DNA from: an uncultured Thermoleophilia bacterium
GTDB lineage: Bacteria > Actinomycetota > Thermoleophilia > UBA2241
Assembly: GCA_963702475.1 (NCBI GenBank)
Contig: CAVPCT010000005.1
Location: 768,001-832,000, forward strand
DNA length: 64,000 nucleotides
Reading direction: 5' to 3'
The position numbers were made by a program, and so were the translations under genes. Shown one piece after another: positions 29,398-48,044 of the stretch. The stretch's first letter is position 1, and each line of letters begins with the position of its first letter. A model generated the notes under the pieces. The model had not been told where the DNA came from, made no database searches, and saw nothing but the letters and a program-made list of their open reading frames with translations.

Positions 29398-29404
29398 GGC
29401 GCGG

Positions 29405-30415
29405 TCACCCGCCGGCGGGGGTCGCCGGTGCCGTGACCGGGCCGCCGCCGGTCGCCGGCGCAACGGCCGGGCCGCCGCCGGGACCGCCGGAGCCGGGTGC
29501 GCGGAACATCGCAGCGTCGAGGTCGGGCGCCGCGACGAGCTCGCCCGCAGCCACGGCGCGCCGGTAGAACTCGTCCAGCCCGGCGCGGTACTCCCGCGCG
29601 AACTCGAAGCGGAGCTTGCGGAAGTACTCGAGCAGGTAGCGCCGGCTGAAGTCGTACCGCTGCGCCGCCGCGCCCGCCGTCTCCTCCGGACGCGCGGCGC
29701 AGCGGTCGCGCGAGGCCAGGAGCGCCGCGCCGACCGCCGCGGCCGCCTGCGGCCGCGCGGCGGCGAACTCGCGACGCACGGCGCACACGGCGAAGACCAT
29801 GGGCATCCCGGTGACGGTACGCCACTCCTCGCTGAGGTCGTAGTGAAACGGGTAGACCTCGGCGCGCAGCACGTACAGCGCCTCGTCGCCGATGAGCAGC
29901 AGCCCGTCGGCGTCGGCGAGCACCTCCGCCAGCGACCCACGCCGCGGGACGAAGTCGGGCTCCATGCCCCACTCCCTGCAGAGCACCTTGAGGAGGCAGA
30001 TGGACGTAGCGCTCTTCTCGGTGAGCGCGATGCGGCGCACCTCCCGCAACGGCACACGCGTGAACAGCTGCACCGAGTCGACCGCGCCGAAAGCGCTGAT
30101 GGACACGTCCGGCAGAAGCGCCAGCTGCGGCGCGGCCCGCGCGAACGCGATCGACGAGGGCAGGGCGACGTCGATGAGGTCGTCCACCAGCATCTCGTTG
30201 AGTTGCGATGGGTACCCCTCGACGATCGTCGCGGACAAGCCGCGCCTCGCGAGCTCCTCCTCGAAGTGGTGGTAGAGCGGAAAACAGTTCACGAACTCGA
30301 TGCGGCCGACGCGAACGGGTTGAACCTCACCCTCACGTCGAAGGAGAGACTCCCGATGGGCGCCGGCCTCCGGTCCCGACGGACCGGCGCCCTCAGGCGG
30401 AGGCGCCGGCGTCAT
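29405..30415 (-). CDS. mqnA: Chorismate dehydratase
   Basis: RVGRIEFVNCFPL, GAVDSV, SATS, LLIGDEAL, DLSEEW..TGMPMVFAV; start uncertain. Confidence 0.9.
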   Translation of the reverse strand: MTPAPPPEGAGPSGPEAGAHRESLLRREGEVQPVRVGRIEFVNCFPLYHHFEEELARRGLSATIVEGYPSQLNEMLVDDLIDVALPSSIAFARAAPQLALLPDVSISAFGAVDSVQLFTRVPLREVRRIALTEKSATSICLLKVLCREWGMEPDFVPRRGSLAEVLADADGLLLIGDEALYVLRAEVYPFHYDLSEEWRTVTGMPMVFAVCAVRREFAAARPQAAAAVGAALLASRDRCAARPEETAGAAAQRYDFSRRYLLEYFRKLRFEFAREYRAGLDEFYRRAVAAGELVAAPDLDAAMFRAPGSGGPGGGPAVAPATGGGPVTAPATPAGG

Positions 30416-31526
30416 CGTAGCGACGCACCACGTTGTAGAGCGTGTCGCGCTCGACGGGGACGCGGCCGGCGGCGCGGATCACGCGGACGAGCTCAGCCTT
30501 GCTGAGCTCCTGCCCGGTGTCGACGCCGGCCGCGTGGCTGATCTTCTCCTCCACCACCGTGCCGTCCAGGTCGTTGACCCCGAACACGAGCGAGACCTGC
30601 GCCAGCTTGAGCCCGACGTTGATCCAGAACGCCTTGATGTGGCGGAAGTTGTCCAGCACGAGACGGCCGACTGCCAGCATGCGCAGGTCGTCGAACCCGG
30701 TGGGCCCGGGCAGGTCGCTGAGGCCGGTGTGCGCGGGCTGGAACGACAGCGGGATGAAGGCGTTGAACCCGCCGGTGTCGTCCTGGAGCTCGCGCAGGCG
30801 GACCATGTGGTCGGCGAGCTCTTCCGGCCGTTCCACGTGTCCGTAGAGCATGGTGGCGTTGGACTTGAGGCCGGCCTCGTGTGCGGCCCGCATGACGTCG
30901 AGCCATTCCTGCCCGGAGATCTTGCGCTCGCAGATGAGGTCGCGCACGCGCCCGCTGAACACCTCGGCGCCGCCGCCCGGCAGCGAGCCGAGGCCCGCCT
31001 GCTTGAGCTTGGTGAGCACCTCCTGCACGGGCTTGCCGCTGATGCGCGCGAAGTGGGCGATCTCGCTGGCCGTGAACGCCTGGATGTGCACATCGGGGTC
31101 GAGCTCACGGAGCGCGTGCATCATGTCCAGGTAGTACTGGAACGGCAGGTCGGGGTGCTCCCCGCCGACGATGTGGATCTCGCTGACGCCGCCCTCGGCA
31201 AGGGTCTCGCGGGCCTTCTCCACGACCTCGTCCACGCTCAGGGTGAAGGCGTCCGCATCCCCTTCGTCGTGACTGAACGCGCAGAACAGACAGCGGTTGC
31301 GGCAGACGTTGGTGTGGTTGATGTGGCGGTTGCGGATGAAGAAGACCTCGTCGCCCACGTCGCGGGCCCGGACGAAGTCGGCCATGGCGCCCAGCGCCAG
31401 CAGGTCGTTGGTCTCCAGCAGCGCCCTCGCCTGGGACGCGTCGAGACGGTCACCGGCCTCGACGGTGTTCCAGACACCTTCCAGGCCCGCACGCGCGGTG
31501 AGGGCAGCGATCTCGGTGGGATGCAC
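30393..31526 (-). CDS. mqnE: Aminofutalosine synthase (radical SAM)
   Basis: NRHINHTNVCRNRCLFCAF, EIHIVGG, HIKAFW, DLDGTVVEEKISHAAG. Confidence 0.9.
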   Translation of the reverse strand: MHPTEIAALTARAGLEGVWNTVEAGDRLDASQARALLETNDLLALGAMADFVRARDVGDEVFFIRNRHINHTNVCRNRCLFCAFSHDEGDADAFTLSVDEVVEKARETLAEGGVSEIHIVGGEHPDLPFQYYLDMMHALRELDPDVHIQAFTASEIAHFARISGKPVQEVLTKLKQAGLGSLPGGGAEVFSGRVRDLICERKISGQEWLDVMRAAHEAGLKSNATMLYGHVERPEELADHMVRLRELQDDTGGFNAFIPLSFQPAHTGLSDLPGPTGFDDLRMLAVGRLVLDNFRHIKAFWINVGLKLAQVSLVFGVNDLDGTVVEEKISHAAGVDTGQELSKAELVRVIRAAGRVPVERDTLYNVVRRYDDAGASA

Positions 31527-31545
31527 GGGGCAGACTCCAGACGTA

Positions 31546-32481
31546 TCAGCTGTAGCGGTCGACGACGTGCGCCGCCACCTGTTCGAGCAGGTCGCGCTCG
31601 ACCGCACCGGGACAGCCGGCGAGCACACTGCGAGCCTGCTCAATGTACCCCAAAGCGGCCGCGCGGGCACGCTGAAGGGCGCCGCTGCCGGCGATGACGC
31701 TGAGGGCTTCGTCCACCTCGTGTGCCGTGAGGTCCCGGCGTGCCAGGAGCGCCCTCAGTCCCGGTTCCGCCTCGAGCGCGTAGATCATCGGCAGCGTCAC
31801 CGTACCGTCGCGGACGTCGGTGCCCGGGCGCTTGCCGGTCGAGTGCTCGTCGCCGCTGCAGTCGAGGATGTCGTCGAACACCTGGAAGGCGAGGCCGATG
31901 AGGCGGCCGTACTCCGCAAGGGACGCGGCCGCCGGAGCCGCTTCGCCCAACAGCGCCCCAAGGCGGCACGCCGCAGCGAAGAGATCGGCGGTCTTGCGCT
32001 CGCAGCGACGCTCGTACTCCGCCACGGTCACCGTGACGCGGTAGGCGTCGTCGCGCTGCAGGACCTCACCCTGCGACAGGCCGACGGCGGCCGCACTGAG
32101 GCTGTCGACGGCGGCCGCGTCGCCGGTGCCGGCGAGCTCCTGGAACGCGCGCGCCAGCAGGAAGTTGCCGGCCGAGACGGCCATCTCGACCCCGAACGCG
32201 TGCGCGACGGTCGGGCGGCCGCGGCGCAACTCCGCGCGGTCCAGCACGTCGTCGTGCACCAGTGTCGCCATGTGCAGCAACTCGACGGCGGTGGCGCCGC
32301 GCAGGGCGGCTCGGCTGAGCGGCCGATCCGCGCGTGCGCAGAGCAGCGCGAGCAAGGGACGCACGCGCTTGCCGCCGGCCGCCAGCGTGGCCCGGCAGGC
32401 CTCGCCGAGGGCCCCGGGCGGGCCGGAAGCCACCGCGTCAAGACGGCGCTCCACACGCTCCATGGCGCGTCCGTAGCGCAC
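31546..32481 (-). CDS. Polyprenyl diphosphate synthase (HepT-like)
   Basis: GGKRVRP, LVHDDVLD..RRG, KTA, AFQVFDDILD. Confidence 0.92.
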   Translation of the reverse strand: MRYGRAMERVERRLDAVASGPPGALGEACRATLAAGGKRVRPLLALLCARADRPLSRAALRGATAVELLHMATLVHDDVLDRAELRRGRPTVAHAFGVEMAVSAGNFLLARAFQELAGTGDAAAVDSLSAAAVGLSQGEVLQRDDAYRVTVTVAEYERRCERKTADLFAAACRLGALLGEAAPAAASLAEYGRLIGLAFQVFDDILDCSGDEHSTGKRPGTDVRDGTVTLPMIYALEAEPGLRALLARRDLTAHEVDEALSVIAGSGALQRARAAALGYIEQARSVLAGCPGAVERDLLEQVAAHVVDRYS

Positions 32482-32522
32482 CTTCTGCCGGGCGGAGGCC
32501 CAGACCAGCTCCGGCCGGCCGC

Positions 32523-33296
32523 TCAGTGCCCCCCCTCGCCGTCCCAGGGCACCTCGCCCACGTGCAGGGCGACGGCGCCGAAGCCGAGACGTCTGTACCG
32601 CAGACGCACGAGGCCGGCGCGGCTCATGAGCGCGGCCAGCTCGCCCGCTCCAGGAAACGCCGCCACGGACGCCGGCAGGTACGCGTAGGCGCGTGGGTCA
32701 CCGGCCACGAGACCGCCGAGCCGAGGGACCACCTGGCCCATCCACACGCGCTGCACCGCCCTTTGCGGCCCGGCCGGCGCACTGGTGGATTCGAGGCACA
32801 CCACCCTGCCGCCCGGCCTGGTGACCCGCCGCATCTCGGCGAAGGCGCGCGGCACGTCGGGCACGTTGCGGACCCCCCACCCCACGGTGACGGCGGAGAA
32901 CGCACCGTCGGCGAACGGGAGGGCGAGGAGATCACCGCGGACGAACGAGACGCGCGCCGAGAGGCCGGGGTCGCCGCCGACCTTCTCCCGCGCGACCTGC
33001 AACATGTCGCCGGTGAGATCGAGGCCGACCACCGTGCACCGCGGCCAGGCGGCAGCGACGGCGAGCGTGAGGTCGCCGGTACCGCAGCAGGCGTCCAGGG
33101 CACGGCCGCCGTCGCCGACCAGCGCCTGCACGGCGGCGAGCCGTCGCCAGCCGGCGTCCAGGCCCAGCGTCATGAGGCGGTTCATGAGGTCGTAGCGGCG
33201 CGCGATGCCACTGAACATGGACTCGATCCGGGCCGGGTCGCGGTCCATGGGCAGCTCGGGCCCGCGGCGGGCGGGCCCGGCCTGATCGCGAGGCAT
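32523..33296 (-). CDS. menG: Demethylmenaquinone methyltransferase (UbiE/MenG)
   Basis: MFSGIARRYDLMNRLM, LDACCGTGD, YAYLPASV. Confidence 0.9.
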   Translation of the reverse strand: MPRDQAGPARRGPELPMDRDPARIESMFSGIARRYDLMNRLMTLGLDAGWRRLAAVQALVGDGGRALDACCGTGDLTLAVAAAWPRCTVVGLDLTGDMLQVAREKVGGDPGLSARVSFVRGDLLALPFADGAFSAVTVGWGVRNVPDVPRAFAEMRRVTRPGGRVVCLESTSAPAGPQRAVQRVWMGQVVPRLGGLVAGDPRAYAYLPASVAAFPGAGELAALMSRAGLVRLRYRRLGFGAVALHVGEVPWDGEGGH

Positions 33297-33937
33297 CAGA
33301 CCGCGCCTCCATCCCAGGGCGGGAACAGGGTCTGCTCGAAGCCGAGCGCCGCCATGATCTTGCCGGCCACGTGATCGACGGCGTCCTGCAGGCTCTGGGG
33401 GCGCGAGTAGAACGCCGGCATGGCCGGGAGCACCACGGCCCCGGCCTCGGCCAGTTCGAGTAGCCGCCGGAGGTGGATCCGGGTGAGCGGCGTCTCCCGG
33501 GGGACGATCACGAGCGGCCGCCGCTCCTTGAGAGCGACGTCGGCGGCCCGGTGGATGAGCGTGCGAGTGGTACCGAGCGCGATGTGGGCGGCAGCGGCCA
33601 CCGAGCACGGACACACGACGACGGCATCCGGCGCGCTGCTGCCGCTGGAGGCCGGCGCAGCGAGGTCGTCCGGCGCGTACACGGCCGCCGTCACACCGGC
33701 GAGCTCGAGAAAAGCCCGAACGACGTCGGCCCGGTGACGGGCGTGCAGCTCGAGCTCGTGATCCAGCACCAGCACGCCGCTGTCGGAGATGCACAGCTGC
33801 AGGCTGCAGCCGGCCGCGTCCAGCGCCTGGACAAGGCGCAGGGCATACGGCGCCCCGCTGGCGCCACTCACGCCCACGAACACGCTCCTGGGGGTCATCC
33901 CTGTCCTCATGCTGGCCGCCGCGACGGCGCCGTTCAC
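33296..33937 (-). CDS. ubiX: Flavin prenyltransferase UbiX
   Basis: GVSGASGAPY, ASSGS, RAADVALKERRPL..VPRETP, PAMPAFY. Confidence 0.93.
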   Translation of the reverse strand: MNGAVAAASMRTGMTPRSVFVGVSGASGAPYALRLVQALDAAGCSLQLCISDSGVLVLDHELELHARHRADVVRAFLELAGVTAAVYAPDDLAAPASSGSSAPDAVVVCPCSVAAAAHIALGTTRTLIHRAADVALKERRPLVIVPRETPLTRIHLRRLLELAEAGAVVLPAMPAFYSRPQSLQDAVDHVAGKIMAALGFEQTLFPPWDGGAV

Positions 33938-33944
33938 CCGCGCG

Positions 33945-35165
33945 TCAGTTGACGCTGCTGCCAGGCTCGTGACACTGGCCGCCCCAGCAACCCTGCGGGC
34001 CGGTGCCGCCGTTGCCGTGGCACTTCATGCACACGCTGCCCTGGTTGTACACGTGGTTCGGGTGGTCGGCGACGAAGGCCGCGGAGTGTGGCAGCGCGAC
34101 GCCGTGACAGCTGGTGCAGAACTGGCTGGAGTGGCACTTGCCGCAGAGCGACGGGTTCGAGAGAGCCACACTGGAGTGCTGACCCATCCAGCTGCTCGGG
34201 TGCGGCATCTGCAGGCCGTGGCAGGTGATGCACGGGTCTTTGCCGTGGCACTTGACACACACCTGGGGATCCTTCTGACCCACGGTGTCGTGCCGCGCCG
34301 TCCAGTCGTCCGGGTGCGGGATCACGACGCCGTGGCAGTCGATGCAGAACCTGGGGTCGTTCTTGAGGTGACACTCTACGCAGATCTCCTTGCCGCGCTC
34401 GTTCACGATGGGACCGTGCTGCTTGATCCACCGCGCCGGGTGCGGCATGGCGAGGCCGTTGTGGCACTCCTCGCACACGACCTCCCCCTTGTGACAGCCG
34501 GCGCAATCCGCGACCGTCATGGGGGCGGTCATGGCCACGTTGATGTCGGCCGGCGGGCGGCCGCCGACGTGGCAGGTGTTGCAGTCGTCCGGCAGCTGCT
34601 TGCCGTCGTGGCAGCGCGCGCAGATGGGCATCTTGTTCTGCGATGCACGCGCGATCTCCAGCTGCGTGCCGGGGTGGCTGATGCTGGCGTGGCAGGTGAT
34701 GCACTGGTAGCCGGCCTCGCGCAGGCCCGTGTGATTGACGCGGATGCCGTCGATCACCTGGTCGCGCTCGATCTGCGACTTGGGGTGACACTGCACGCAG
34801 TTGTTGGTGCCGACCGCGGTGGTCAGCGGACGCTCATACGTGTCGGACACGTACAGGATGAGGTTCGTGACGCCCTGCAGGTTACGGATCGCGTAGTTGA
34901 ACACGCCGGGCTTGGTGTGGCACTGCTGGCAGCCCACTCCGGCCTGGTAGTGGGCGGAGCGCTTGTACGAGTCCACCTCCGGCTGCACGAGATGACAGAG
35001 CTCGCACGTCCTGATGTTGTTGACGGCAGAGAACCCGATGACGGCCACGACGACGATCAGGGCGACGGCAGCGAGCACCCCGAAGATCCAGGCCGCCGGC
35101 ACTGTACCCTCGAGCAGGACCCGTTTGCCGGAGTCGCCGTTCTTGCCTTTGCGGGACACGGTCAC
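33945..35165 (-). CDS. Membrane-anchored multiheme cytochrome c (NapC/NirT-like N-terminus; 15 CxxCH + 1 CX4CH)
   Basis: Manual motif count; N-terminal TM helix. Confidence 0.92.
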   Translation of the reverse strand: MTVSRKGKNGDSGKRVLLEGTVPAAWIFGVLAAVALIVVVAVIGFSAVNNIRTCELCHLVQPEVDSYKRSAHYQAGVGCQQCHTKPGVFNYAIRNLQGVTNLILYVSDTYERPLTTAVGTNNCVQCHPKSQIERDQVIDGIRVNHTGLREAGYQCITCHASISHPGTQLEIARASQNKMPICARCHDGKQLPDDCNTCHVGGRPPADINVAMTAPMTVADCAGCHKGEVVCEECHNGLAMPHPARWIKQHGPIVNERGKEICVECHLKNDPRFCIDCHGVVIPHPDDWTARHDTVGQKDPQVCVKCHGKDPCITCHGLQMPHPSSWMGQHSSVALSNPSLCGKCHSSQFCTSCHGVALPHSAAFVADHPNHVYNQGSVCMKCHGNGGTGPQGCWGGQCHEPGSSVN

Positions 35166-36208
35166 TCGCTCACCGGTTGGGTGGTGGCCCCGGCCGCCGG
35201 CGAGACGCGCGGCTCCGGCGTGTAGTCGACACCGTCGAACAGACTGTGGGCGCGCGGGTCACCCGAGGCGTGCTGCACGTGGCAGGCCTGGCAGTTGTCC
35301 AGGACATGGCAGTTGAAGCAGGTCGGGACCCCGGCTTTCTCCACGGACTGGGGGTGCGCGGCGACGTAGTCCTCGGGGTGGGGCATCTTCACCTGGTGGC
35401 AGGTGCGACAGTACTCCTTGACGTCGTGACACTGCACGCACGTCTCGCGTCCCTGCGCCTCGGCGGTCTTGCCGTGGGTGGTCATCCAGACGGCGGCGTG
35501 CGGCATCTCGATGCCCGAGTGGCAACTGCTGCAGGCGTCCTTCTGCAGGTGACAGGCGCTGCACGTGGAGAGGATGCCGATGGCCCCGTGACGCGTGTCC
35601 CAGCCGGCCTGGTCGTGGGTGGCCGGAACGGCGCTGCTCACCGGCTTCTCGTGGCACTGGTCGCAGCGGGACGTCGCGACCGTACCGTCGTCCGCCCGGT
35701 AGCGGTTGTTGTGGCAGATGAGGCACTGGTCCATCGCGGGGTAGGTGCGCGACCCTTCGGGTACCGCTTCGCCGTGCGCGACTGTGGAGTGGCAGCGTTG
35801 ACAGAGGAATCCCGCCTCGATGAGGTGCTGGTGGTCCACGCGGATGCCCTGGGCGCTGATGGTCGTGAACAGGCTGTCGTTGGTGTGGCAGCGGCGGCAC
35901 GACTGGTTGAGCACGAAGCCAAGGATGGGCTTCTCGTAGTCACCCGTGATCTGAGCGATGGGCTGTTGCAGGGCCTCAAGCTTGGAGGTGAGGAAGAACA
36001 GCGGGCCCGGCTTGGTGTGGCACTGCTCGCAGTTGACGCTCCCGTGAGCTGACTGCTCCCACCAGGCGACGTACGGCTCGTGGCTCTTGCACGCGGAACA
36101 GAACGTGGCCGTGGATGTGGCCGCAAGCAGCACGCCGATGAGCACGACCAGGACGGTGAGGCCGATGGCTGCGATGGTGATGCCGCGTGCGGTGAGACGG
36201 AACTTCAC
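35162..36208 (-). CDS. Membrane-anchored multiheme cytochrome c (NapC/NirT-like; 11 CxxCH + CxxCK)
   Basis: Manual motif count; TM helix followed by FCSACKSH. Confidence 0.92.
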   Translation of the reverse strand: MKFRLTARGITIAAIGLTVLVVLIGVLLAATSTATFCSACKSHEPYVAWWEQSAHGSVNCEQCHTKPGPLFFLTSKLEALQQPIAQITGDYEKPILGFVLNQSCRRCHTNDSLFTTISAQGIRVDHQHLIEAGFLCQRCHSTVAHGEAVPEGSRTYPAMDQCLICHNNRYRADDGTVATSRCDQCHEKPVSSAVPATHDQAGWDTRHGAIGILSTCSACHLQKDACSSCHSGIEMPHAAVWMTTHGKTAEAQGRETCVQCHDVKEYCRTCHQVKMPHPEDYVAAHPQSVEKAGVPTCFNCHVLDNCQACHVQHASGDPRAHSLFDGVDYTPEPRVSPAAGATTQPVSE

Positions 36209-36211
36209 GTG

Positions 36212-37162
36212 CTATCGGCGGACCGAGCCGGCGTGAGGGAAGCGGGCATGGACGGCGTCGCTGTGACACAGACTGCACGCGTATCCATTGGTGTGCCTGG
36301 CAGCCGAGCCGTGGCACCTGAGGCAGGTGGAGTTGCCCGGGATGGGCATCCGGGAAGCGTGGAACCTCTTGCCGTGACACGAGTTGCAGGTGAGTCTGGA
36401 GCCCGCGGGCGCCGCGTGGAGGGCCTTGTTGTGACAGCCGGACAGGTTGCAGCTGAGCTTCTTCGTGACCTTCGTGGAGTGCTGCGCGAGCTTCTGCGCA
36501 CCGGTGCCGGTGCCCTTGTGACAGGTGGCGCACTTGCCGCCGGAGACCGTGCGACCGGCGTGCCTCATGGAGTGGCAGCCGGCGCACTTCTTGAAGCCGG
36601 GGCTCGTGGCCTGGTAGGTGTGGTAGGCGTTCGCCGCGGTATGGCACGCCTCGCAGTCGACCGTGCCGGCGTGCTGTTTCTGCTTGTGACAACGCGAGCA
36701 CGGCGACATGCCGGGCGAACCGCCGTTGTGGTGCGGGCTGACGCCCGGCTGGGCGACGCCGTCACTCGGCGCGTGACAGCCGAGGCACTGCGGAAGCGAG
36801 CCGCGGTGGGGATCCGTGCCGTGGGCGAACTCCTTGCCGTACACCACGCCCTGGCTCTGCAGGTGGCACGTGCCGGCGCAGTCGGCGCTGGTGGCCGACA
36901 TGGACGACGTGTCCTGGCCGGGTGCGTGACACGACCAGCACGTGTACCCCTTGAGGCTCTCGAACCCGGTGTGGCAGGACGTGCAGGAGGCGTCTGTGGG
37001 CTTGCCCTGAAGGTGGCAGACGCAGCCGGTGGCGCCGTCGTGCTTCCAAGGGTCGTAGGCGGCGGCCGGCGCGGTGAAGAGGGCTGCGCCGGCGGAGACG
37101 CCGACGAGTGCGAGAGCAGCCGCGGCGACCGCGACCGCCACCCACCGGCGGATACCTCTCAC
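36212..37162 (-). CDS. Secreted multiheme cytochrome c (10 CxxCH + CX1CH, CX3CH, CX4CH)
   Basis: Signal peptide ending PAAA; manual motif count. Confidence 0.9.
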   Translation of the reverse strand: MRGIRRWVAVAVAAAALALVGVSAGAALFTAPAAAYDPWKHDGATGCVCHLQGKPTDASCTSCHTGFESLKGYTCWSCHAPGQDTSSMSATSADCAGTCHLQSQGVVYGKEFAHGTDPHRGSLPQCLGCHAPSDGVAQPGVSPHHNGGSPGMSPCSRCHKQKQHAGTVDCEACHTAANAYHTYQATSPGFKKCAGCHSMRHAGRTVSGGKCATCHKGTGTGAQKLAQHSTKVTKKLSCNLSGCHNKALHAAPAGSRLTCNSCHGKRFHASRMPIPGNSTCLRCHGSAARHTNGYACSLCHSDAVHARFPHAGSVRR

Positions 37163-37389
37163 GCTGACTCCCTTCCCCTCACCGACGGCGCTCTCCACAG
37201 CGCCTCGCCGGCCTCACGGCTTCCTCCACACAGAGTCGCGGCTCCGCGACCGTACTCGTACCCCTCGAGCGCGCCGACGCCCCTCCGATGCGGCCACGCT
37301 CCGCGCCAGTGTACCAGTCCTCGTGAAGCCGTTCACCGTCGAAAAGCGGTCCGCGACGGCTGAACGCCCCGAGCGTGACACCGGCTGCG

Positions 37390-37398
37390 ATTGTACCA
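37390..37398 (-). promoter_or_regulatory. Extended -10 element (TGGTACAAT) upstream of the secreted multiheme gene
   Basis: Identical 9-mer also at 41457-41465, upstream of the other cytochrome group. Confidence 0.5.
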
Positions 37399-37441
37399 CA
37401 CGGGGTATCTCGCGACCGCATGTACCAGGCACTCGCCACGC

Positions 37442-38311
37442 TCAGAGCACCAGCGTTGCGGCGATGACGATGGCGCCGTAGAGAAGCCCGACCGCGCCGT
37501 TCACCGTCATGAAGCTCATGCCCACCCGGTCGAGCCCGCGGCGGGCGATGTCGACGTGCGGCCAGGCGAGCAGCGCGAGCACCGCGGTCAGCCCCGCCCA
37601 GTAGACCGGCCCCAGGCCACAGAGGGCGCCCACCGCGGCCAGCAGCACGCCGGCGCCCACGTGAGAGGCCGCCGCGACCCACAGCGCGCCGCGCGGACCC
37701 ACGGCCACCGGCACGGAGTGCAGGCCCTCGCGGCGATCGACGTCGAGGTCGAAGACCGCGTAGATCACGTCGAAGCCGCCCACCCACAGGCCGACGGCGA
37801 AGAACAGCAGCCAGGGGACCGCCCCGAGACGCCCGCTGACGCCCAGCCACGCGGCCGCCGGCGCGAGACCCAGCGTGAGGCCGAGCGCGTAGTGGCAGAA
37901 CCACGTGAAGCGCTTGGCGTAGGGATAGAAGACGAAGGCGGCCAGCGGCACGGGCCAGAGGTACCTGCACGGCTCCGAGAGCTGGAACGCGGCGAGCACG
38001 AGCAGGCTCACCGAGACGGCTGTGAAGACCCAGACCTCGCGCCGCCCCAGACGACCCGCCGGCAGCTCGCGCTGCGACGTACGCGGGTTGCGCGCGTCGA
38101 GCTCGGCGTCGATGAGCCGGTTCAGTGCCATGGCCGCGCTGCGCGCCCCCACCATGGCCACCGTGATCCACAGAAGCTGACTCCAGGTGGGGGCCCCCCT
38201 CGCGGCCAAGAAGGCGCCCGCGTACGCGAAGGGAAGTGCGTAGATGCTGTGCTCGATCTTGACCAGCCGGGCGAACAGCGCCGGCTTGGCGGCGGCGCCT
38301 GACCGGGTCAA
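37442..38311 (-). CDS. UbiA-family prenyltransferase (MqnP-like)
   Basis: VKIEHSIYALPFA, ARSAAMALNRLIDAELDARNPRT..R, GFDVIYA..D...D. Confidence 0.9.
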   Translation of the reverse strand: MTRSGAAAKPALFARLVKIEHSIYALPFAYAGAFLAARGAPTWSQLLWITVAMVGARSAAMALNRLIDAELDARNPRTSQRELPAGRLGRREVWVFTAVSVSLLVLAAFQLSEPCRYLWPVPLAAFVFYPYAKRFTWFCHYALGLTLGLAPAAAWLGVSGRLGAVPWLLFFAVGLWVGGFDVIYAVFDLDVDRREGLHSVPVAVGPRGALWVAAASHVGAGVLLAAVGALCGLGPVYWAGLTAVLALLAWPHVDIARRGLDRVGMSFMTVNGAVGLLYGAIVIAATLVL

Positions 38312-38327
38312 GCCCAGAGGCCCCGCG

Positions 38328-38654
38328 TCAGCCCAGTCGTTCCGCCGCCGCGCCGCCCTGCCCGGCCTGGTGCCCGGACTCGGCTCCCTCGGGCGCGATC
38401 GGAACGTGCGCGAACTTCTCGAGCAGGAAACAGGCGATGGCCACGATGACCGCGAACAGGCCGATCACGAACAGCACCGTGTAGACGATGATGCTGGCGG
38501 GCGAGGTGATGCCCAGGGTCGCGCTGATCGTCCACGCGGCCACCGCGATACCCCAGTTCACGAGCGACAGGCGCAGCAGGAAACGCCGCGCCTTCTTGTC
38601 GCGTCCCGAGGCCTCCTGATGGGCCCGGTGGGAGCCGAGCGGAGCTGTCGACAT
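38328..38654 (-). CDS. Small 2-TM membrane protein
   Basis: Two hydrophobic helices; tightly coupled to the upstream cytochrome b/c gene. Confidence 0.7.
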   Translation of the reverse strand: MSTAPLGSHRAHQEASGRDKKARRFLLRLSLVNWGIAVAAWTISATLGITSPASIIVYTVLFVIGLFAVIVAIACFLLEKFAHVPIAPEGAESGHQAGQGGAAAERLG

Positions 38655-38655
38655 C

Positions 38656-40428
38656 TCAGCCAAAGACCATGATGAACAGTGCCCAGAGGATGAACGCCGT
38701 CATGAGCAGTGCCATGAATCCCATGACCAACGTTATCACCCACCAGAGGGCGTCCGAAAGTAGCGTGCGCCACGTGATGGTGCGCTCCACGAGGACCTGG
38801 TCGAGCGTGCCCTCGCGCACGTGCCGCGCATACTCCAGCGGGCGGTCCTCGCGGTAGTGCTCGACCGGCAGCGTACCGGTGAAGATCACCTTGTCGATGG
38901 GGAACGACTCGGGCCGCAGGTGGGCGCTGAAAAAGTGCACGAAGATGAAGATGACGCCCATGGCCAGCAGCGCCTCGCTGGAGTGGATGACGAGGGCGAT
39001 GTTGACGAACACGCCGGGCACGAGCTGGGTCGTCCTCTCCGGGAACCACATCATGAAGCCGGTGACGCCGATGATGACGGTGCCGGCGCCCAGAGAGAGA
39101 TAGTCGAACTTCTCCCAGTACGTGTAGCGGTCGAACTGCGGCTTGGGTCCGCGGCCGAAGAACCAGGAGAACATGCCGATCATGTCCTGCAGGTCTTTGA
39201 AGCTCGGCAGCATGGAGTTGGGGCCGCGCAGGTTCTTGCCCCGCTTTCGCGCGACCTGCACGACCATGTAGGTCACCTCGGACACGAAGTAGAAGACGGT
39301 GACGACGGCCGCGATGCGGTGATACACGCCGGCGGAGGTGACCCCGCCGAAGAGGTCCATGAACCACTGCGCCCACGGCGTGTCCTTGTACTTGAGCGGC
39401 ATGCCCGTGAAGACGAGCACGGTGAAGCTGACGATGACGAGGATGTGCATCCAGCGGTGGAACACGTTGAAGCGGTGGAACTCGATGCGCTTGTCGCCGA
39501 GCTTGTCGCGGTGCCGCGGCCGCGAGTACAGGCCGTCCCTGAAGCCCCGATAGACGTAGAGACCCGTGTGCACGGCAGCGAACGTGAACACGATGGAGAT
39601 GAGGAGCACGTAGGCCATCCAGAAGATCCAGATCTCCCACGACGAGCTGGGGCTCGCCGGGTTGACGTGCACCTTGAACCCGGCGAAGTTCTCGTTGGCG
39701 CCCGGGTGGCACGCCTGACACGTGGCGACCAGGTTCTCCTCCGACACGGAGCTGGTCGGATCCGACGCCGGGAGGATGTGGTGGCCGGTGTGGCAGTCGC
39801 TGCACACGGCCGTTTCGCCGTCGCCTAGCAGGTAGGCCTTGCCGTGGTAGCTGTCGAGGAAGGTCTCGCTCTTGTCACCGTGGCACTTGGTGCACATGGC
39901 GAGCTCGCCCTCTCGGAACTCCCTGGTGCCCGGCGGGACGATGTTGTGCGCGTCGTGGCAGTCGCCGCACAGCGGAGCCCTGCCGTCGCTCCCCGCGAGC
40001 GTGAGCTTGCCGTGGAACGAGCCGTCGTACATCTGGGCGACGTCGCCGTGGCAATCCTCGCACGCCTCGAACTTGGCGACCCGGAGCCAGTCCTCGGTGA
40101 CGCTCTCAGGGTGCATGCCGGCGTTGAAGCCGACGTGACAGCTCGTGCACGCCAGCTGACCGTGGAGCGAGCTCTCCAGCACGGGGCGCTGCACGTAGAT
40201 GCTCTTCTTCTCGCCGTTGACGTCGATGTACGCCGGCACCTTCTGGCCGTCGACCTCGATGAAGCCGTCGACGGGCCGCTGCCCGTGGCACTCGTAGCAG
40301 GCGTCGTTGTCGGCCGGTCCGCCGGCGGAGCCGCTCGACTGCGCGGCGGACCCGGCGGCGGCGACCGCGAGCAGCGCGAGCACGAAGAGGCAGACGAGGA
40401 CGCTGAAGGCTGGCCGGCGCGGTGTCAT
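38656..40428 (-). CDS. Multiheme cytochrome c / cytochrome b fusion (CbcL-like quinol oxidoreductase; 7 CxxCH)
   Basis: Signal peptide, 7 CxxCH, then an FdnI-like cytochrome b domain (RFNVFHRWMH, YHRIAA, DRYTYWEKFDY, IHSSEA...HFF). Confidence 0.88.
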   Translation of the reverse strand: MTPRRPAFSVLVCLFVLALLAVAAAGSAAQSSGSAGGPADNDACYECHGQRPVDGFIEVDGQKVPAYIDVNGEKKSIYVQRPVLESSLHGQLACTSCHVGFNAGMHPESVTEDWLRVAKFEACEDCHGDVAQMYDGSFHGKLTLAGSDGRAPLCGDCHDAHNIVPPGTREFREGELAMCTKCHGDKSETFLDSYHGKAYLLGDGETAVCSDCHTGHHILPASDPTSSVSEENLVATCQACHPGANENFAGFKVHVNPASPSSSWEIWIFWMAYVLLISIVFTFAAVHTGLYVYRGFRDGLYSRPRHRDKLGDKRIEFHRFNVFHRWMHILVIVSFTVLVFTGMPLKYKDTPWAQWFMDLFGGVTSAGVYHRIAAVVTVFYFVSEVTYMVVQVARKRGKNLRGPNSMLPSFKDLQDMIGMFSWFFGRGPKPQFDRYTYWEKFDYLSLGAGTVIIGVTGFMMWFPERTTQLVPGVFVNIALVIHSSEALLAMGVIFIFVHFFSAHLRPESFPIDKVIFTGTLPVEHYREDRPLEYARHVREGTLDQVLVERTITWRTLLSDALWWVITLVMGFMALLMTAFILWALFIMVFG

Positions 40429-41369
40429 TGCGCCGTCACGCCGTTCTCCTGGTGACACTCGTCACACATGCTCTGCGGGTGACAGACGAGGCACGACTCC
40501 GGGCTCTTGCCGGCGACGTCGCCGTGAGCCTGCACCCAGTCGGCGGGATGCTTCACGGCGTGGCACTGCGAGCAGTAGCGCTCGTCGTGGCAGGCGTCGC
40601 AGCCCTCTGGGTCGGCGGCGGCGTCGGCGCCGTGGGTGTACCGCCACGTCCCGGAGAAGTGGTCGGGCGATGGATAGCCGTGGCACGTGTCGCAGAAGGC
40701 CTTCCTGTCGTGGTGACAACGCAGGCACTGCTCCTCGTTGACGCGAGCCTGCTCGCCGTGGTCCTTCATGAAGTCGACAGCGTGCGCGGTGGCCGGCTCG
40801 GCGTGGCAGTAGTCGCAGGCCGCCGGGGCACCCTGGTCGTTGTGGCACATGGTGCAGGTCGCCATGCTGACGCTGCCCGTCTGCCCGGCGCGCTTGTGGG
40901 ACGTGGTGGTGTGGCAGTCGTAGCAGAGCAGCCCCCTGTCCTCCAGGTGCTCCTCGTGGTTCATGCGTACGCCGTCCGTCTCGTCCGGGATGGACGACAC
41001 GGGGTGGCACTTGAGGCAATTGGCGTTGGTGGGGAGCTGGCGCACATCGTCGCCGGCTGCCATGCCGAGGTAGTCGGCCCAGATGTTGCGCGTCTCCGTG
41101 AGGCGCCACTTGGCATTGGCGACGGTGCCTTCCGGCACGTGGCATTCGACGCAGGACACCATGCTGTGGGCGGCGGCGGCCCACGAGCGTTCGGCCGGCT
41201 TCATGGCCTTGCAGGAGGTGCAGTAGGAGACCGTGTCTTGCGCGGCCACCGGAAGGACGAGCACGGCGAGGATGACCACGATGATGCCGACGACCACCAG
41301 CCAGCTGAACCACGAGGTGCGGTACCACGGCCGCTGGACAGGCCGATGCCGGTGTACTTTCTCAGCCAA
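40425..41369 (-). CDS. Membrane-anchored multiheme cytochrome c (NapC/NirT-like; 11 CxxCH + CxxCKxM)
   Basis: TM helix then YCTSCKAM; manual motif count. Confidence 0.92.
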   Translation of the reverse strand: MAEKVHRHRPVQRPWYRTSWFSWLVVVGIIVVILAVLVLPVAAQDTVSYCTSCKAMKPAERSWAAAAHSMVSCVECHVPEGTVANAKWRLTETRNIWADYLGMAAGDDVRQLPTNANCLKCHPVSSIPDETDGVRMNHEEHLEDRGLLCYDCHTTTSHKRAGQTGSVSMATCTMCHNDQGAPAACDYCHAEPATAHAVDFMKDHGEQARVNEEQCLRCHHDRKAFCDTCHGYPSPDHFSGTWRYTHGADAAADPEGCDACHDERYCSQCHAVKHPADWVQAHGDVAGKSPESCLVCHPQSMCDECHQENGVTAQ

Positions 41370-41456
41370 GAAGAGAGGCTCCCACGTGCTCCATCCTCAC
41401 GGTCCCCCCCGGCGACGGCCGTCCCCTCGATCCAGGCCGCCCCGGTTGTGGCGGGC

Positions 41457-41540
41457 ATTGTACCACCCCGTACCTACGCTCGCCACACGCACGACCAATA
41501 CGGCGGTGGGTATCTCCGGAGATACGGCGGCAGGTATGTG
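41457..41540 (-). promoter_or_regulatory. Promoter region with extended -10 and tandem ATAC-N8-GTAT boxes
   Basis: TGGTACAAT at 41457-41465; atacggcggtgggtat and atacggcggcaggtat; perfect palindrome gtatctccggagatac at 41510-41525. Confidence 0.5.
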
Positions 41541-41568
41541 GACCGAGACTGCCGCCGGGCGCGGAGGC

Positions 41569-43005
41569 TCAGGAGAACGGCAGGCCGAGCTCGGCCCAGC
41601 GGTCCGTCACACGGCGCCGTATCAGGGGGTCCATGGCCAGCTCTTCGGGCCACTCGCGCGCATGGCCCTCGTCCGGCCAGGTCTTCGTGGCATCGATGCC
41701 CATCTTGGCGCCGTAGCGCGCGAAGGGGCTCGAGTGATCGAGCACGTCGAGGGGGCCGCGCACGATGACCGTGTCGCGCTCGGGGTCGACGTTGTTGAAC
41801 ACCCGCCAGGTCACTTCGCTGTAGTCGTGCACGTCCACGTGCTCGTCCACCACCACGACGAACTTGGTGAACATCATCTGCCCCATGCCCCACACCGCGC
41901 TCATGATCTTGCGCGCGTGGCCCGGGTACTCCTTGCGGATGCTGATGATGGCGCAGTCGTGGAACACGCCCTCGATGGGCAGGTCCATGTCGACGATCTC
42001 GGGCTGCACGAGCTGCAACAGCGGCAGGAAGAGGCGCTCGGTGGCCTTGCCGAGGTAGGCGTCCTCCATCGGCGGCTTGCCGACGATGGTGGCCGGGTAG
42101 ACGGGGTCGCGGCGGTGGCTCATGGCCGTGAGGTGGAACACCGGGTACTGGTCGGCCAGGGAGTAGTAGCCGGTGTGATCGCCGAACGGCCCCTCGAGCC
42201 GCGTCTCTCCCTTCTCCACGTAGCCCTCGAGGACGATCTCAGCGTCGGCCGGCACCTGCAGGTCGACGGTGGCGCACGGCGCCATGTCGACCGGCTCGCC
42301 GCGGAGGAAGCCGGCGAACATGAACTCGCTGATGCCCGGCGGAAGCGGCGCCGTGGCGGCGTAGGTGACCGCGGGGTCGGTACCGAGGGCGACGGCGACC
42401 TCCGTACGCTCGCCCGCCTCGCGCAGGTTGGAGGCGCCGTCGTGGTGGACGTGGATGTGCAGACCGGTGGTGCGCGAGTCGAACACCTGCAGGCGGTACA
42501 TGCCGGCGTTCTGGCGACCCTGGCGGTCTTTGGTCACCACGATGGGCAGCGTCATGAACGGACCGCCGTCGCCGGGCCAGGTGGTGAGCACCGGCAGGCG
42601 CGTGAGGTCCGGCGGGTCGACGACGACCTCACGCCACAGCGCCTTCTTGCCGTACCTGGGGCCGTACGAGGCCAGCTCCTTGAGCTGGCCGAGCGCCTTG
42701 ACCTTGCCGACGAGGCCGCTGGGGACCTGCAACTCGAGGAGGCCGCCGATGCGCTTCGCGATGTCGTCGAGCGGCGCCCCGAGCGCCAGCTCCAGGCGCC
42801 TGAACGAGCCGAGCTGGTTCATGAGGACCGGCACGGCGGAGCGCCCTGCCGGCATCAGGGGGCGCTCGAAGAGCAGCGCCGGCCCGTGCGCCTTGCTGGC
42901 GCGGTCGGCGATCTCGGCCATCTCGAGATACGGATCGACCTCGGGACGCACGCGAGCGAGCTCGCCCTCGCGTTCGAGCAGACTGATGAACGCTCGCAGG
43001 TCCAC
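41569..43005 (-). CDS. UbiD-family decarboxylase (menaquinone biosynthesis, MqnL-like)
   Basis: DLRAFISLLEREGEL, WPGDGGPF, NAGMYR, EGPFGDHTGYY, GKPPMED. Confidence 0.93.
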   Translation of the reverse strand: MDLRAFISLLEREGELARVRPEVDPYLEMAEIADRASKAHGPALLFERPLMPAGRSAVPVLMNQLGSFRRLELALGAPLDDIAKRIGGLLELQVPSGLVGKVKALGQLKELASYGPRYGKKALWREVVVDPPDLTRLPVLTTWPGDGGPFMTLPIVVTKDRQGRQNAGMYRLQVFDSRTTGLHIHVHHDGASNLREAGERTEVAVALGTDPAVTYAATAPLPPGISEFMFAGFLRGEPVDMAPCATVDLQVPADAEIVLEGYVEKGETRLEGPFGDHTGYYSLADQYPVFHLTAMSHRRDPVYPATIVGKPPMEDAYLGKATERLFLPLLQLVQPEIVDMDLPIEGVFHDCAIISIRKEYPGHARKIMSAVWGMGQMMFTKFVVVVDEHVDVHDYSEVTWRVFNNVDPERDTVIVRGPLDVLDHSSPFARYGAKMGIDATKTWPDEGHAREWPEELAMDPLIRRRVTDRWAELGLPFS

Positions 43006-43006
43006 G

Positions 43007-43606
43007 TCAGGCCGCCACCCCAGGCGACAAGGCGTCGAGGGCGCGCACGAGAGGCGCGGCGTCGCGCAGGTGGAGAGCCGGCGCCTGGACCCGAGCGAGG
43101 ACGGGTACGTCGACCGCGCCGCCCGCGGCCAGAGCCTCATCGAGCGCCTCGAAGAGCAGCGCGGCCTGCCGGAGGGCGACGCCCTGGCGCAGGGCGGCGA
43201 GGCCGCCGACGGTGTACGCCCACAAGGCGTCGTCGGCGGCGAACGGCGCCTGCAGGCTGCGCAGGTACGAGCAGGCTGCCATGAGACGCGCCAGCAGGCC
43301 GACGGCCGCCGCGTCGCCGCGCGCGGCGACGATGTGCAGGCCGCGCGCGTACAGGAAGTCGCCGGCGAGGAGCGCGTTCTCGCGGCACGCCTGCTCGCCG
43401 GCCGCGCACACGCGGCTCTGGCGATAGTGGAACAGGTAGCCCTCGTAGATGAGCTCGATGGCGCGCACGTACTCGGCGTCGTCCCCGCCGTCGAGCTCGT
43501 CGAAGAGCAGACCCCAGCGCAACCGGGGCTCGGCGCCGGCGGGCGGCCCAAAAGCAGCGCCCGCCTCCCGGAGACCCCGCGCGACCGGAGGGACCGAGAC
43601 CGGCAT
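43007..43606 (-). CDS. Hypothetical protein with isoprenoid-synthase-like helices
   Basis: AIELIYEGYLFHY...ALLAGDFLYARGL resembles prenyl-synthase helices but lacks DDxxD. Confidence 0.65.
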   Translation of the reverse strand: MPVSVPPVARGLREAGAAFGPPAGAEPRLRWGLLFDELDGGDDAEYVRAIELIYEGYLFHYRQSRVCAAGEQACRENALLAGDFLYARGLHIVAARGDAAAVGLLARLMAACSYLRSLQAPFAADDALWAYTVGGLAALRQGVALRQAALLFEALDEALAAGGAVDVPVLARVQAPALHLRDAAPLVRALDALSPGVAA

Positions 43607-43607
43607 G

Positions 43608-44249
43608 TCAGACCTGCTCGTGGTCCAGATAGAACGTCAGCGACATGAGCTCGCTCGAGAGGTCGACCTGGCGCACGAGAGCATCTTCGGGCTTCTGGAC
43701 CTTGACGGGCGCGAAGTTGAGCATGGCCCGCACGCCGGCCGCGGCGAGGCGGTCGACGGTGGCCTGCGCCTCCGCCGCCGGCACGGTGACGAGGGCGATG
43801 TCCACGGCCTCGGAGGCGCAGAAACCCTCGAGATCGGCGATGCTGCGCACGCGTCCCGCGCCGTAGCTCGCGCCGATCACCGAGGCCGAACTGTCGAACA
43901 TCCCGACCAGGCGGAACCCCTGTTCCGTGAACCCCCGGTACCGGGCGAGCGCAGTACCCAGGAGGCCGGCTCCGACGATGATCACGTTCCACGAGTGGTC
44001 GAGGCCGAGGCAGTGGGAGATCTCGTCGATGAGGCGGGAGACCTCGTAGCCCACGCCGCGCGTGCCGAACTCTCCGAAGTAGGAGAAGTCCTTGCGGATC
44101 TGGGCGGCGTTGAGGCCGATGCTCTCCGCGAGGTCCTTGCTGGAGACGCGGCCGACGCCGCGGGCACGCAGCTCGCGCAGCTTGCGCAGGTACACCGCCA
44201 GCCGCGGCACAGTGACGGCGGGGACGTCGTTCTTGTCAACGTTGCGCAC
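43608..44249 (-). CDS. rex: Redox-sensing transcriptional repressor Rex
   Basis: RLAVYLR, SSKDLA, QIRKDFSYFGEFGTRGVGY, IVGAGLLGTAL, LNFAP. Confidence 0.96.
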   Translation of the reverse strand: MRNVDKNDVPAVTVPRLAVYLRKLRELRARGVGRVSSKDLAESIGLNAAQIRKDFSYFGEFGTRGVGYEVSRLIDEISHCLGLDHSWNVIIVGAGLLGTALARYRGFTEQGFRLVGMFDSSASVIGASYGAGRVRSIADLEGFCASEAVDIALVTVPAAEAQATVDRLAAAGVRAMLNFAPVKVQKPEDALVRQVDLSSELMSLTFYLDHEQV

Positions 44250-44252
44250 GTA

Positions 44253-47948: not shown

Positions 47949-48044
47949 ACCGGCTCCTAGTGTGCCAGAGCAGCATGAGGGGCGCAACGCGGGCGCTCGG
48001 GGCGCGCCCTCACTCGGCGCCTCGATGGCCCGCCCGCCTCCGCC

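Follow-up and report, generated by a model that had tools for sequence, protein, structure and literature searches.

We analysed a 64,000-nucleotide stretch of DNA (hereafter, the window) from contig CAVPCT010000005.1 of an uncultured soil and sediment actinobacterium of the class Thermoleophilia, in which cytochrome genes lie within a menaquinone (vitamin-K2) operon. Five neighbouring c-type cytochrome genes, termed cytG, cytF, cytC, cytB, and cytA, occupy positions 33945-41369 on the minus strand, inside a longer minus-strand run that extends from hemL to mqnC (Table 1). hemL, rex, and mqnL lie upstream of the cytochrome genes, mqnP lies between two cytochrome blocks, and ubiX, ubiE, the polyprenyl synthase gene, mqnE, mqnD, and mqnC follow downstream. 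The window has a G+C content of approximately 70%, and genes were chosen by third-position G+C (GC3).

A motif scan detected 54 CxxCH sites (cytA, 15; cytB, 11; cytC, 10; cytF, 7; cytG, 11), two CxxCK sites, and four conserved atypical sites, giving 60 candidate c-heme sites in total (16, 12, 13, 7, and 12 in the same order). Beyond these c-type sites, we infer two b hemes in cytF. The whole 4.3 Mb genome contained nine high-GC3 frames with at least five CxxCH, and five of the nine were these neighbours; clustering of the five genes is thus well beyond chance. An earlier interpretation made from the letters of the window (the sequence-only reading) had described five multiheme genes with about 60 heme sites, three of them NapC/NirT-like and membrane-anchored, flanked by ubiD-, ubiA-, and ubiX-like genes, with rex and hem genes on one side and mqn genes on the other. 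All of its coordinates and CxxCH counts were reproduced, as were the flanks; each of the three anchored proteins exceeded the gathering score of PF03264, and cytF matched the b561/FdnI domain and showed the FdnI fold in its model. Its statement that the window has no terminal reductase or porin was also borne out, as the window showed no multiheme gene besides these five and no molybdoenzyme or porin-like gene.

The cytochrome genes are tightly spaced. A gap of 200 nt separates mqnL from cytG. cytG and cytF overlap by ATGA if cytF begins at M11 (40428), which is the start position of its orthologues. cytF and the following 111-aa open reading frame (ORF) overlap by 8 nt, or are 1 nt apart if a later Met is used, and this ORF ends 16 nt before mqnP. 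After a gap of 243 nt, cytC is followed by cytB at a distance of 3 nt, the cytB stop and the cytA start overlap in GTGA, and ubiX begins 7 nt after the cytA stop. By these junctions, the cytochrome genes are translationally coupled to mqnP and ubiX. mqnP and ubiX have no space for promoters of their own and must therefore be transcribed from starts located 5' of cytochrome genes.

Table 1 Features of the minus-strand run and its surroundings (positions in the window; bits are given against the model cut-off where available; TM, transmembrane)
Feature	Position	Strand	Remarks
hemB	48045-49019		Flanking heme-synthesis gene
hemL (glutamate-1-semialdehyde 2,1-aminomutase)	44253-45545	-	First gene of the run; TIGR00713, 576.8 bits (527.3); PF00202
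rex (redox-sensing (NADH/NAD+) transcriptional repressor)	43608-44249	-	Second gene of the run; NF003992, 252.2 bits (226); PF06971 and PF02629
199-aa conserved protein, family-less	43007-43606	-	Between rex and mqnL across family f1
mqnL (UbiD-family menaquinone biosynthesis decarboxylase, SCO4490 type)	41569-43020	-	TIGR03701, 594.9 bits (495.9); start approximate
TGGTACAAT, extended -10-like element	41457-41465	-	In the 200-nt gap 5' of cytG
cytG	40425-41369	-	PF03264, 40.3 bits (24.1); one TM helix; 11 CxxCH and 1 CxxCK
cytF	38656-40458	-	PF01292, 41.6 bits (30.1); 7 CxxCH and six-helix b domain; start likely M11 at 40428
111-aa one-helix membrane protein, family-less	38328-38663	-	TM helix 63-81
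mqnP (UbiA-family prenyltransferase)	37442-38311	-	PF01040, 161.1 bits; TIGR01475, 268.1 bits (180.8); MqnP-specific models score under their cut-offs
TGGTACAAT, second copy	37390-37398	-	In the 243-nt gap 5' of cytC
Rex-operator-like palindrome GTGAA-CGGC-TTCAC (37323-37336), then, 6 nt on, TGGTACACT (37308-37316)	37308-37336	-	About 110-125 nt 5' of the cytC start
cytC	36212-37198	-	Exported or N-terminally tethered; 10 CxxCH, CxCH, CxxxCH, and CxxxxCH
cytB	35162-36208	-	PF03264, 55.4 bits (24.1); one TM helix; 11 CxxCH and 1 CxxCK
cytA	33945-35165	-	PF03264, 46.3 bits (24.1); one TM helix; 15 CxxCH and CxxxxCH
ubiX (flavin prenyltransferase, MqnM role)	33296-33937	-	TIGR00421, 180.5 bits (108.9)
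ubiE/menG methyltransferase	32523-33230	-	TIGR01934, 206.7 bits (158.35); start approximate
Long-chain polyprenyl diphosphate synthase	31546-32481	-	PF00348, 221.9 bits
mqnE	30393-31670	-	Early futalosine pathway; TIGR03700, 488.1 bits (434.55)
mqnD	29405-30415	-	Early futalosine pathway; PF02621
mqnC	27815-about 28850	-	Early futalosine pathway; TIGR03699, 487.2 bits (428.1)

cytA, cytB, and cytG share an architecture. A single N-terminal TM helix (residues 27-45, 10-28, and 24-42, respectively) is directly followed by the first heme site (residues 54, 37, and 50), and the head is extended by di-heme repeats, which, as read from the motif spacing, number five in cytA and three each in cytB and cytG; cytA thus corresponds to cytB with two more repeats. 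The CxxxxCH of cytA was kept in all seven orthologues. Scores against the NrfH equivalog model TIGR03153 (50.4 and 45.1 bits; cut-off 134.2) and the TorC equivalog models (19-25 bits; cut-offs 455-478) fell far short of the cut-offs, and no NrfA or TorA gene was found in the window. A Foldseek search with the usable head of the cytG AF2 model gave NrfH chains 2vr0_F and 2j7a_C as the best PDB matches (prob 1.00, TMt 0.46-0.47, E 7e-3 to 3e-2). PDB sequence searches with cytF and cytA yielded weak matches to the generic multiheme chains 28pb_A and 3ov0_A and nothing more.

The first site of the head deviates in two of the three proteins. At the position of NapC/NrfH heme 1, cytG has CTSCKAM (residue 50) and cytB has CSACKSH (residue 37); site 1 of cytA is a canonical CxxCH. 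All ten cytG orthologues carried C[TM]SCK with xM or AT after it, and CxxCKSH was found in seven of eight cytB orthologues. The second-copy paralogues of cytG in relatives all carried CxxCHxM at this site (10/10; CGSCH[AS]M or similar). In NrfH, the iron of heme 1 is described as bound by the Met of CxxCHxM and not by the motif His, with the quinol analogue HQNO binding beside it (bioRxiv 10.1101/2023.05.03.539133). The Lys of CxxCK would accordingly replace a non-ligand residue, because Met, and not the motif His, binds the iron in NrfH. Lys, Met, and His are each candidates for the heme-1 ligand in cytG and cytB. A profile of the cytG family collected 6113 representatives at E ≤ 1e-3 and 408 clusters (50% identity) at E ≤ 1e-30. 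Among the best 150, 12 was the modal number of CxxCH (44 sequences) and 32 the maximum, and 75 started with CxxCHxM and seven with CxxCK. When ten clusters were sampled, five had named members, all with generic names only (metagenome-assembled genomes (MAGs) of Actinomycetota, Armatimonadota, and unclassified bacteria).

cytF combines a c-type and a b-type domain. A signal-peptide-like helix (residues 17-35) precedes seven CxxCH in residues 54-251, and six TM segments follow. A comparison of 16 sequences drawn from several phyla showed all seven CxxCH to be invariant. Six His of the b domain (297, 338, 380, 492, 508, and 513) were likewise invariant across phyla, and four of them would bind the b hemes. 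The AF2 model had a pLDDT of 72, and its membrane domain superposed on E. coli FdnI, 1kqf_C (TMt 0.75, prob 1.00, E 5e-5); the PDB sequence match of cytF was 28pb_A ('Cytochrome c', 278 aa, E 7.8e-10). cytF was always preceded by, and translationally coupled to, the gene for an NrfH-headed 12-heme partner, and in some relatives the cytF-like gene was split into separate c and b genes. A complex prediction for cytF and cytG, run with no controls, scored 0.00 and has no bearing on binding either way. The cytF family comprised at least 588 loci from many phyla; most members had approximately 930 aa, and the nearest relatives outside the class were such forms, with 33-41% identity. An mqn gene was found in none of 71 non-Thermoleophilia loci of this family.

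cytC has an N-terminal hydrophobic stretch and no further membrane segment, and is predicted to be either exported or N-terminally tethered. Its atypical sites were conserved to different degrees in the eight orthologues: CxCH and CxxxCH were kept in all eight, and CxxxxCH was a plain CxxCH in seven. The CxCH lies at residues 59-62 (about 37013-37024 in the window). To our knowledge, heme attachment has not been described for cysteines spaced by only one residue, and this CxCH may instead provide a ligand or form a disulphide.

The two wide gaps in the cluster contain promoter-like elements. The extended -10-like element TGGTACAAT is present in both of them, and was found 5' of every cytG-type gene in 12 scanned loci of the genus. 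The gap 5' of cytC additionally holds a palindrome resembling a Rex operator, followed by TGGTACACT. A perfect palindrome core occurred at the orthologous place in nine of 13 genus loci and nowhere else in those loci. In an alignment of eight loci, the palindrome arms and the extended -10 were invariant, the 4-nt spacer varied, and the flanks diverged; in six relatives, the palindrome block begins right where the b-subunit gene before it has its stop codon. Across the 4.3 Mb genome, seven perfect cores were found, of which three were intergenic. The general Rex consensus is given as TTGTGAANNNNTTCACAA (PMC5317091, citing Ravcheev 2012), and the site of the relatives agrees with it at 12 of 14 specified positions. 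Rex is described as repressing at low NADH/NAD+ (PMC5355995). We regard the palindrome as a good lead, rather than a demonstration, for control by Rex. The cytC-cytB-cytA-ubiX block is probably driven by a separate promoter that responds to Rex, the sensor of NADH/NAD+. A genome-wide search with the full 18-nt consensus gave 30 sites with three or fewer mismatches; none of these lay 5' of cytG, hemL, the cytochrome c maturation (ccm) genes, or cox, and one Rex-like site about 280 nt 5' of the gene for an OcwA-like protein (see below) was too weak for use. A consensus scan for promoters and terminators was uninformative: it returned one promoter-like site, outside the cluster, and two terminator-like sites within genes, fewer than in shuffled sequences.

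By its named homologues, the organism belongs to Thermoleophilia. Within this class, only some members of a single family carry the cassette in the interval from mqnL to ubiX. A synteny survey, which the sequence-only reading had proposed, showed that it is kept there in loci of the genus: the same gene set was present in all seven fetched genus loci (L009, L010, and L012-L016) and in L099 of a second genus. Cytochrome genes were found between mqnL and ubiX in six of seven named Thermoleophilia loci; the seventh was represented by a short stretch of a contig, and a longer stretch of the same contig shows them. cytF-like genes occurred in 20 of 24 further genomes of the genus and, outside the family but within the class, in one of 16 genomes. 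Many relatives possess an extra cytG'-cytF' module 3' of mqnP, in which cytF' is split into c and b genes, and the order varies. By our reading of the spacing table, 14 of the 16 genomes of the family were evaluable, with mqnL and ubiX 7.0-10.5 kb apart in six and 0.7-2.7 kb apart in eight. In families f2, f3, f9, and f10, the spacing was 2.4-5.1 kb in 25 same-contig pairs, and in f4 and f6 the two genes were unlinked. One genus has an ABC transporter and an aminotransferase in the interval instead of the cassette. The cassette-free loci L101 (G002:C7, 2479-2736) and L103 (G101:C181, 4322-5271) retain short in-frame remnants of cytF, cytC, and cytB between mqnP and ubiX. These remnants are deletion scars recording loss of the cassette, and they show that at least some of the losses are real events. 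In one relative, the interval was clean and the cassette was absent with no scar.

A genome of family f4 (G032) contains nine cytochrome genes, two cytG-like genes and split cytF-like genes included, between hemD/cobA-hemB and hemL-rex-mqnL-mqnP. This cluster occupies the same hem-rex-mqn neighbourhood at another insertion point. The co-location with quinone synthesis claimed in the sequence-only reading is therefore stronger than the letters alone could show, given the coupling to mqnP and ubiX and this related cluster in the same hemB...hemL-rex-mqn neighbourhood. The link to heme synthesis that it had also drawn was narrower, resting on hemL, hemB, and one candidate radical-SAM/SPASM gene.

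Four further multiheme genes were identified elsewhere in the genome. One of them (G000:C5:391979-393721, where G000 is the genome of the window) encodes a 9-heme OcwA homologue with nine CxxCH and an NrfA-like C-terminus (PF02335), and its best PDB match was 6i5b_A (E 6.8e-20). 6I5B is OcwA, described as a surface reductase of a Gram-positive bacterium (PMC6703420). An HAO-like, octaheme-type protein with a PKD domain matched 6h5l_A (E 4e-29). No NapC-, b-, or NrfD-type quinol dehydrogenase was found within 7 kb of the four other multiheme genes. Of 25 genomes of the genus, 19 had cytA and 21 had the OcwA homologue, and all 19 genomes with cytA carried the OcwA homologue. Four genomes without cytA (93-100% complete) also lacked the OcwA homologue and the 23-heme (see below) and HAO-like proteins. 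The 23-heme and HAO-like genes were accessory, occurring in eight and seven of the 25 genomes, respectively. Omp85 was not found in the genome (93.8% complete), and control genomes gave matches.

Several side observations concern these partners and their assembly. The 23-heme protein (approximately 737 aa; G000:C8:26262-28472; L098:5259-7472) is secreted and has long internal repeats and a C-terminal beta-rich domain. The end domain of a 3-heme protein (C5:353941-354684) resembles that of the 23-heme protein, and this domain may bind the cell wall. A gene for a membrane-anchored pentaheme protein (G000:C3:307246-309195; L095:6746-8695) adjoins a gene with Ferric_reduct and NAD_binding domains (NOX/FRE-like), and this pair could form an NAD(P)H-driven, quinone-independent electron exit. 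Cytochrome c maturation seemingly follows System I, as suggested by CcmE and three CcmC/F-type genes (G000:C3:450304-455755), and ResB was not found in the genome. System I maturation is unusual for Actinomycetota.

These results suggested that the most likely function of the cluster, which we propose with moderate confidence, is export of electrons from menaquinol to the cell surface. As the quinol-oxidising stage of anaerobic respiration, cytG, cytB, and cytA would take electrons from menaquinol on the external side of the membrane via their NrfH/NapC-type heads, which are lengthened by three to five di-heme repeats into chains of 12, 12, and 16 hemes, and cytF, with its di-heme b domain fused to seven c hemes, would provide a second entry for menaquinol. 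Electrons would then run along the heme chains and the 13-site cytC, cross the wall zone, and reach cytochromes whose genes lie outside the cluster. Among these, the 9-heme OcwA homologue would be the best-fitting partner, with the 23-heme and HAO-like PKD proteins added in some strains. Compounds such as Fe(III), humic quinones, or nitrogen oxyanions would serve as final acceptors, either extracellular or in the wall zone. Translation of the cassette in tandem with mqnP and ubiX would mean that the quinone supply and the quinol oxidases are made together, and relief of Rex repression would switch on the cytC-cytB-cytA-ubiX block when NADH accumulates. Of the monoderm quinol-to-surface pathway outlined in the sequence-only reading, the monoderm setting is plausible, as no Omp85 was found; its other half, transfer to minerals, humics, or electrodes, is putative. 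That reading had also named, as an outcome contrary to its proposal, a described module whose catalytic subunit is encoded elsewhere. This outcome is touched by the candidate terminal reductases that lie outside the window, namely the OcwA homologue, the HAO-like PKD protein, and the 23-heme protein, OcwA itself being a described terminal reductase of extracellular electron transfer. The cluster may thus be a shared quinol-oxidising stage for cytochromes encoded elsewhere.

The proposed pathway resembles known systems in part. The closest logic is that of Thermincola potens and T. ferriacetica (ImdcA-PdcA-CwcA-OcwA), in which an anchored multiheme cytochrome is described as oxidising the menaquinone pool, a soluble multiheme cytochrome as the carrier, and 9-heme OcwA as the surface component (PMC7911101, PMC6703420). 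An OcwA homologue is likewise present here and tracks the cassette. The present system differs in its host (Actinomycetota), in having three parallel NrfH-headed anchors and a CbcL-type bc protein versus one decaheme, and in the location of its genes inside a menaquinone operon. cytA, cytB, and cytG share a single N-terminal helix and a tetraheme-type head with NrfH, NapC, CymA, and ImcH; NrfH was the best structural match, and the paralogues have CxxCHxM. They differ from these proteins in carrying 8-12 further hemes, in having Lys for the heme-1 His in cytG and cytB, and in lacking an adjacent gene for NrfA, NapA, TorA, or a comparable partner. Geobacter CbcL is described as nine c hemes joined to a six-helix di-heme b domain (PMC9129911), and cytF is similar in architecture, as an exported multiheme c domain is joined to a six-helix di-heme FdnI/HydC (b561) domain; a role as menaquinol oxidoreductase is presumed for both. 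The potential ranges covered by ImcH, CbcL, and CbcBA in Geobacter differ from one another (PMC12307469). In gene content and gene order, the backbone agrees with the late futalosine locus of Streptomyces (SCO4490-4492, mqnL-mqnP-ubiX), and the models are named after SCO4490, SCO4491, and SCO4494. The difference is the mqnL-ubiX interval, widened by cytochrome genes from about 1-2.7 kb to 7.5-10.5 kb, with the compact form found in cassette-free relatives. A rex-hem arrangement is also a feature of Streptomyces.

Several points weigh against export to the surface. Two genomes of the genus (63% and 68% complete) had the OcwA homologue with no cytA detected, and the co-occurrence of cytA and OcwA was observed among close kin and is not independent evidence. 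The absence of an outer membrane is deduced from a single marker in a MAG with 6.5% contamination. The AF2 model of cytG is poor (pLDDT 55.8), its N-terminal head (approximately 140 residues) alone being usable. The likeness of cytF, with seven c hemes versus nine, to CbcL is one of architecture, and the likeness to ImcH, ImdcA, PdcA, and CwcA is one of architecture and function. The palindrome in the window agrees with the Rex consensus at 11 of 14 positions, and no genome-wide Rex regulon was evident. Two runs carry the label 'METAGENOMIC RNA-Seq', and that they are RNA is guesswork. Their low-depth contigs covered each of the 30 bins of window positions 29000-46000 evenly, intergenic parts included; these contigs may be DNA and are unusable for expression. 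NapC-type proteins classically work with soluble reductases. The NapC/NirT family is described as usually paired with enzymes (bioRxiv 10.1101/2023.05.03.539133). The genome also carries a haem-copper oxidase and approximately 29 molybdopterin oxidoreductase matches, which mark the organism as a versatile respirer. Some of the molybdopterin matches are clustered, for example at C9:106838-119320 and C3:551578-574732, a very rich anaerobic repertoire for 4.3 Mb.

The main rival explanation is a general quinol-dehydrogenase hub of the CymA, TorC, or NrfH kind, which would serve soluble reductases of the wall zone instead of a conduit to solids. Such a hub would pass electrons to exported molybdoenzymes, to the HAO-like enzyme, or to the 9-heme protein related to NrfA, with nitrite, hydroxylamine, S- or N-oxides, and the like as substrates. 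It would suit the usual pairing of the NapC/NirT family with enzymes, the HAO-like gene, and the numerous molybdopterin-domain matches of the genome, as well as the orphan cytochromes that lack quinol dehydrogenases of their own, and OcwA is described as reducing nitrite and hydroxylamine in vitro (PMC6703420). However, the HAO-like gene was present in just 7 of 25 genus genomes versus 19 for cytA, chains of 12-16 hemes (up to 32 in the family) are unnecessary for reaching a soluble partner, no reductase gene was adjacent in any examined locus, and the NrfH equivalog scores were 50 and 45 bits versus 134. We consider this explanation rather unlikely. If the genes are silent or serve soluble reductases only, the locus would be an ordinary respiratory cluster at an unusual genomic position.

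The chain might also work in reverse, drawing electrons from an outside source (Fe(II), reduced humics, a cathode, or a partner cell) into menaquinone to support respiration with oxygen or nitrate. Menaquinone reduction is the natural activity of FdnI-type b domains, 1kqf_C being a formate dehydrogenase-N subunit; the genome has a haem-copper oxidase, and NapC-type proteins have been proposed for electron uptake in Fe(II) oxidisers, according to a preprint (bioRxiv 10.1101/2022.01.10.475773). However, the Rex-type element and rex in the cluster point to induction at NADH excess, which fits disposal of electrons, and the partner found throughout is homologous to a terminal reductase. Transfer from Fe(II) to menaquinone is, moreover, unfavourable given the low potential of menaquinone. 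Uptake is accordingly improbable as the main function.

The least probable explanation is that the cytochromes serve menaquinone synthesis, as an anaerobic oxidant for prenyl-FMN maturation or for a quinol intermediate, or that the co-location is the meaningless product of an insertion hot spot: interleaving and coupling with mqnP and ubiX would agree with this, and the unrelated ABC-transporter insert of another genus with a permissive site, but menaquinone synthesis can do without the cytochromes because cassette-free relatives with a compact mqnL-mqnP-ubiX retain the full pathway, the heme domains are predicted to be extracellular while UbiD and UbiX are cytoplasmic, and the related cluster of a second family elsewhere in the same hem-rex-mqn neighbourhood argues against pure accident. 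Two further candidates were rejected. A canonical Nrf nitrite reductase would have an adjacent NrfA-type gene, which is missing, and its CxxCK would lie in a soluble pentaheme protein and not in a membrane-anchored head. A porin-cytochrome (Mtr/Pcc) conduit was rejected because no Omp85 was found in the genome (93.8% complete) and no barrel-like gene in the cluster.

Within export from menaquinol to the surface, a more specific proposal can be made, which as a whole is tentative and in our view rather doubtful. In this proposal, the final steps of menaquinone synthesis (those of MqnP and UbiX, with UbiE and the prenyl synthase as possible additions) would have come to depend for their transcription on the multiheme quinol oxidases through a lineage-specific operon fusion, with Rex acting over at least cytC-cytB-cytA-ubiX, and a single response to NADH excess would both enlarge the quinone pool and build the electron exit. 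The exit itself would be a new device, consisting of NrfH-headed single-helix wires of 12-16 hemes (up to 32 in uncultured relatives) that span the wall without soluble shuttles and have Lys for the motif His at the quinol-site heme.

Detailed knowledge of Gram-positive-type electron export comes from only a few Firmicutes. In Actinomycetota, matches at marker level only are given by a preprint, which reports CbcL homologues and surface multihemes for 8 of 19 Thermoleophilia MAGs (bioRxiv 10.1101/2022.03.26.485925). In the searchable literature, which leaves most subscription journals outside, we found no paper on multiheme genes inserted in, or translationally coupled to, an Actinomycetota menaquinone operon, and no report of the Rex-type promoter element, the CxxCK variant of NrfH heme 1, the presence/absence series covarying with OcwA, or the size of the family of NrfH-headed polyheme proteins. 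The locus supplies a conserved parts list and a candidate regulator with a putative operator. The natural presence/absence series in one genus, with its co-varying OcwA homologue, makes the pathway testable. The NrfH-headed polyheme proteins form a large family whose named members were seen with generic MAG annotation only.

The remaining observations concern minor features of the neighbourhood. Neither the 199-aa nor the 111-aa protein had a match in Pfam, NCBIfam, or PHROGs, the last being a poorly suited library. In a protein atlas searched with a language model, the 199-aa protein was placed at rank 26 (score 0.92) to clusters of HEPPP_synt_1, a distant similarity. As a lead only, it is possibly a HepS-like small subunit of prenyl diphosphate synthase (heptaprenyl diphosphate synthase component 1), and it would then pair with the HepT-like prenyl synthase at 31546-32481. 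Of 15 family-f1 loci examined that contain mqnP, 13 had the gene for the 111-aa protein directly 5' of it, irrespective of the cytochrome order, and it was not detected in L100 and L102; this protein may be a membrane partner of the menaquinone pathway rather than a cytochrome component. The radical-SAM/SPASM gene lies between hemL and hemB (window 46797-47987), and an AhbD- or HemW-like heme-pathway enzyme is a candidate for its product. DNA nearly identical to the cluster was present in wastewater and sediment metagenomes, with runs containing a small share of it left out of account for habitat. A DUF4388 gene was seen in three places, namely by hemB (window 49171-50445), by the OcwA-like gene (L096:9813-10619), and by the cytochrome cluster of family f4 (L104:1986-2858).

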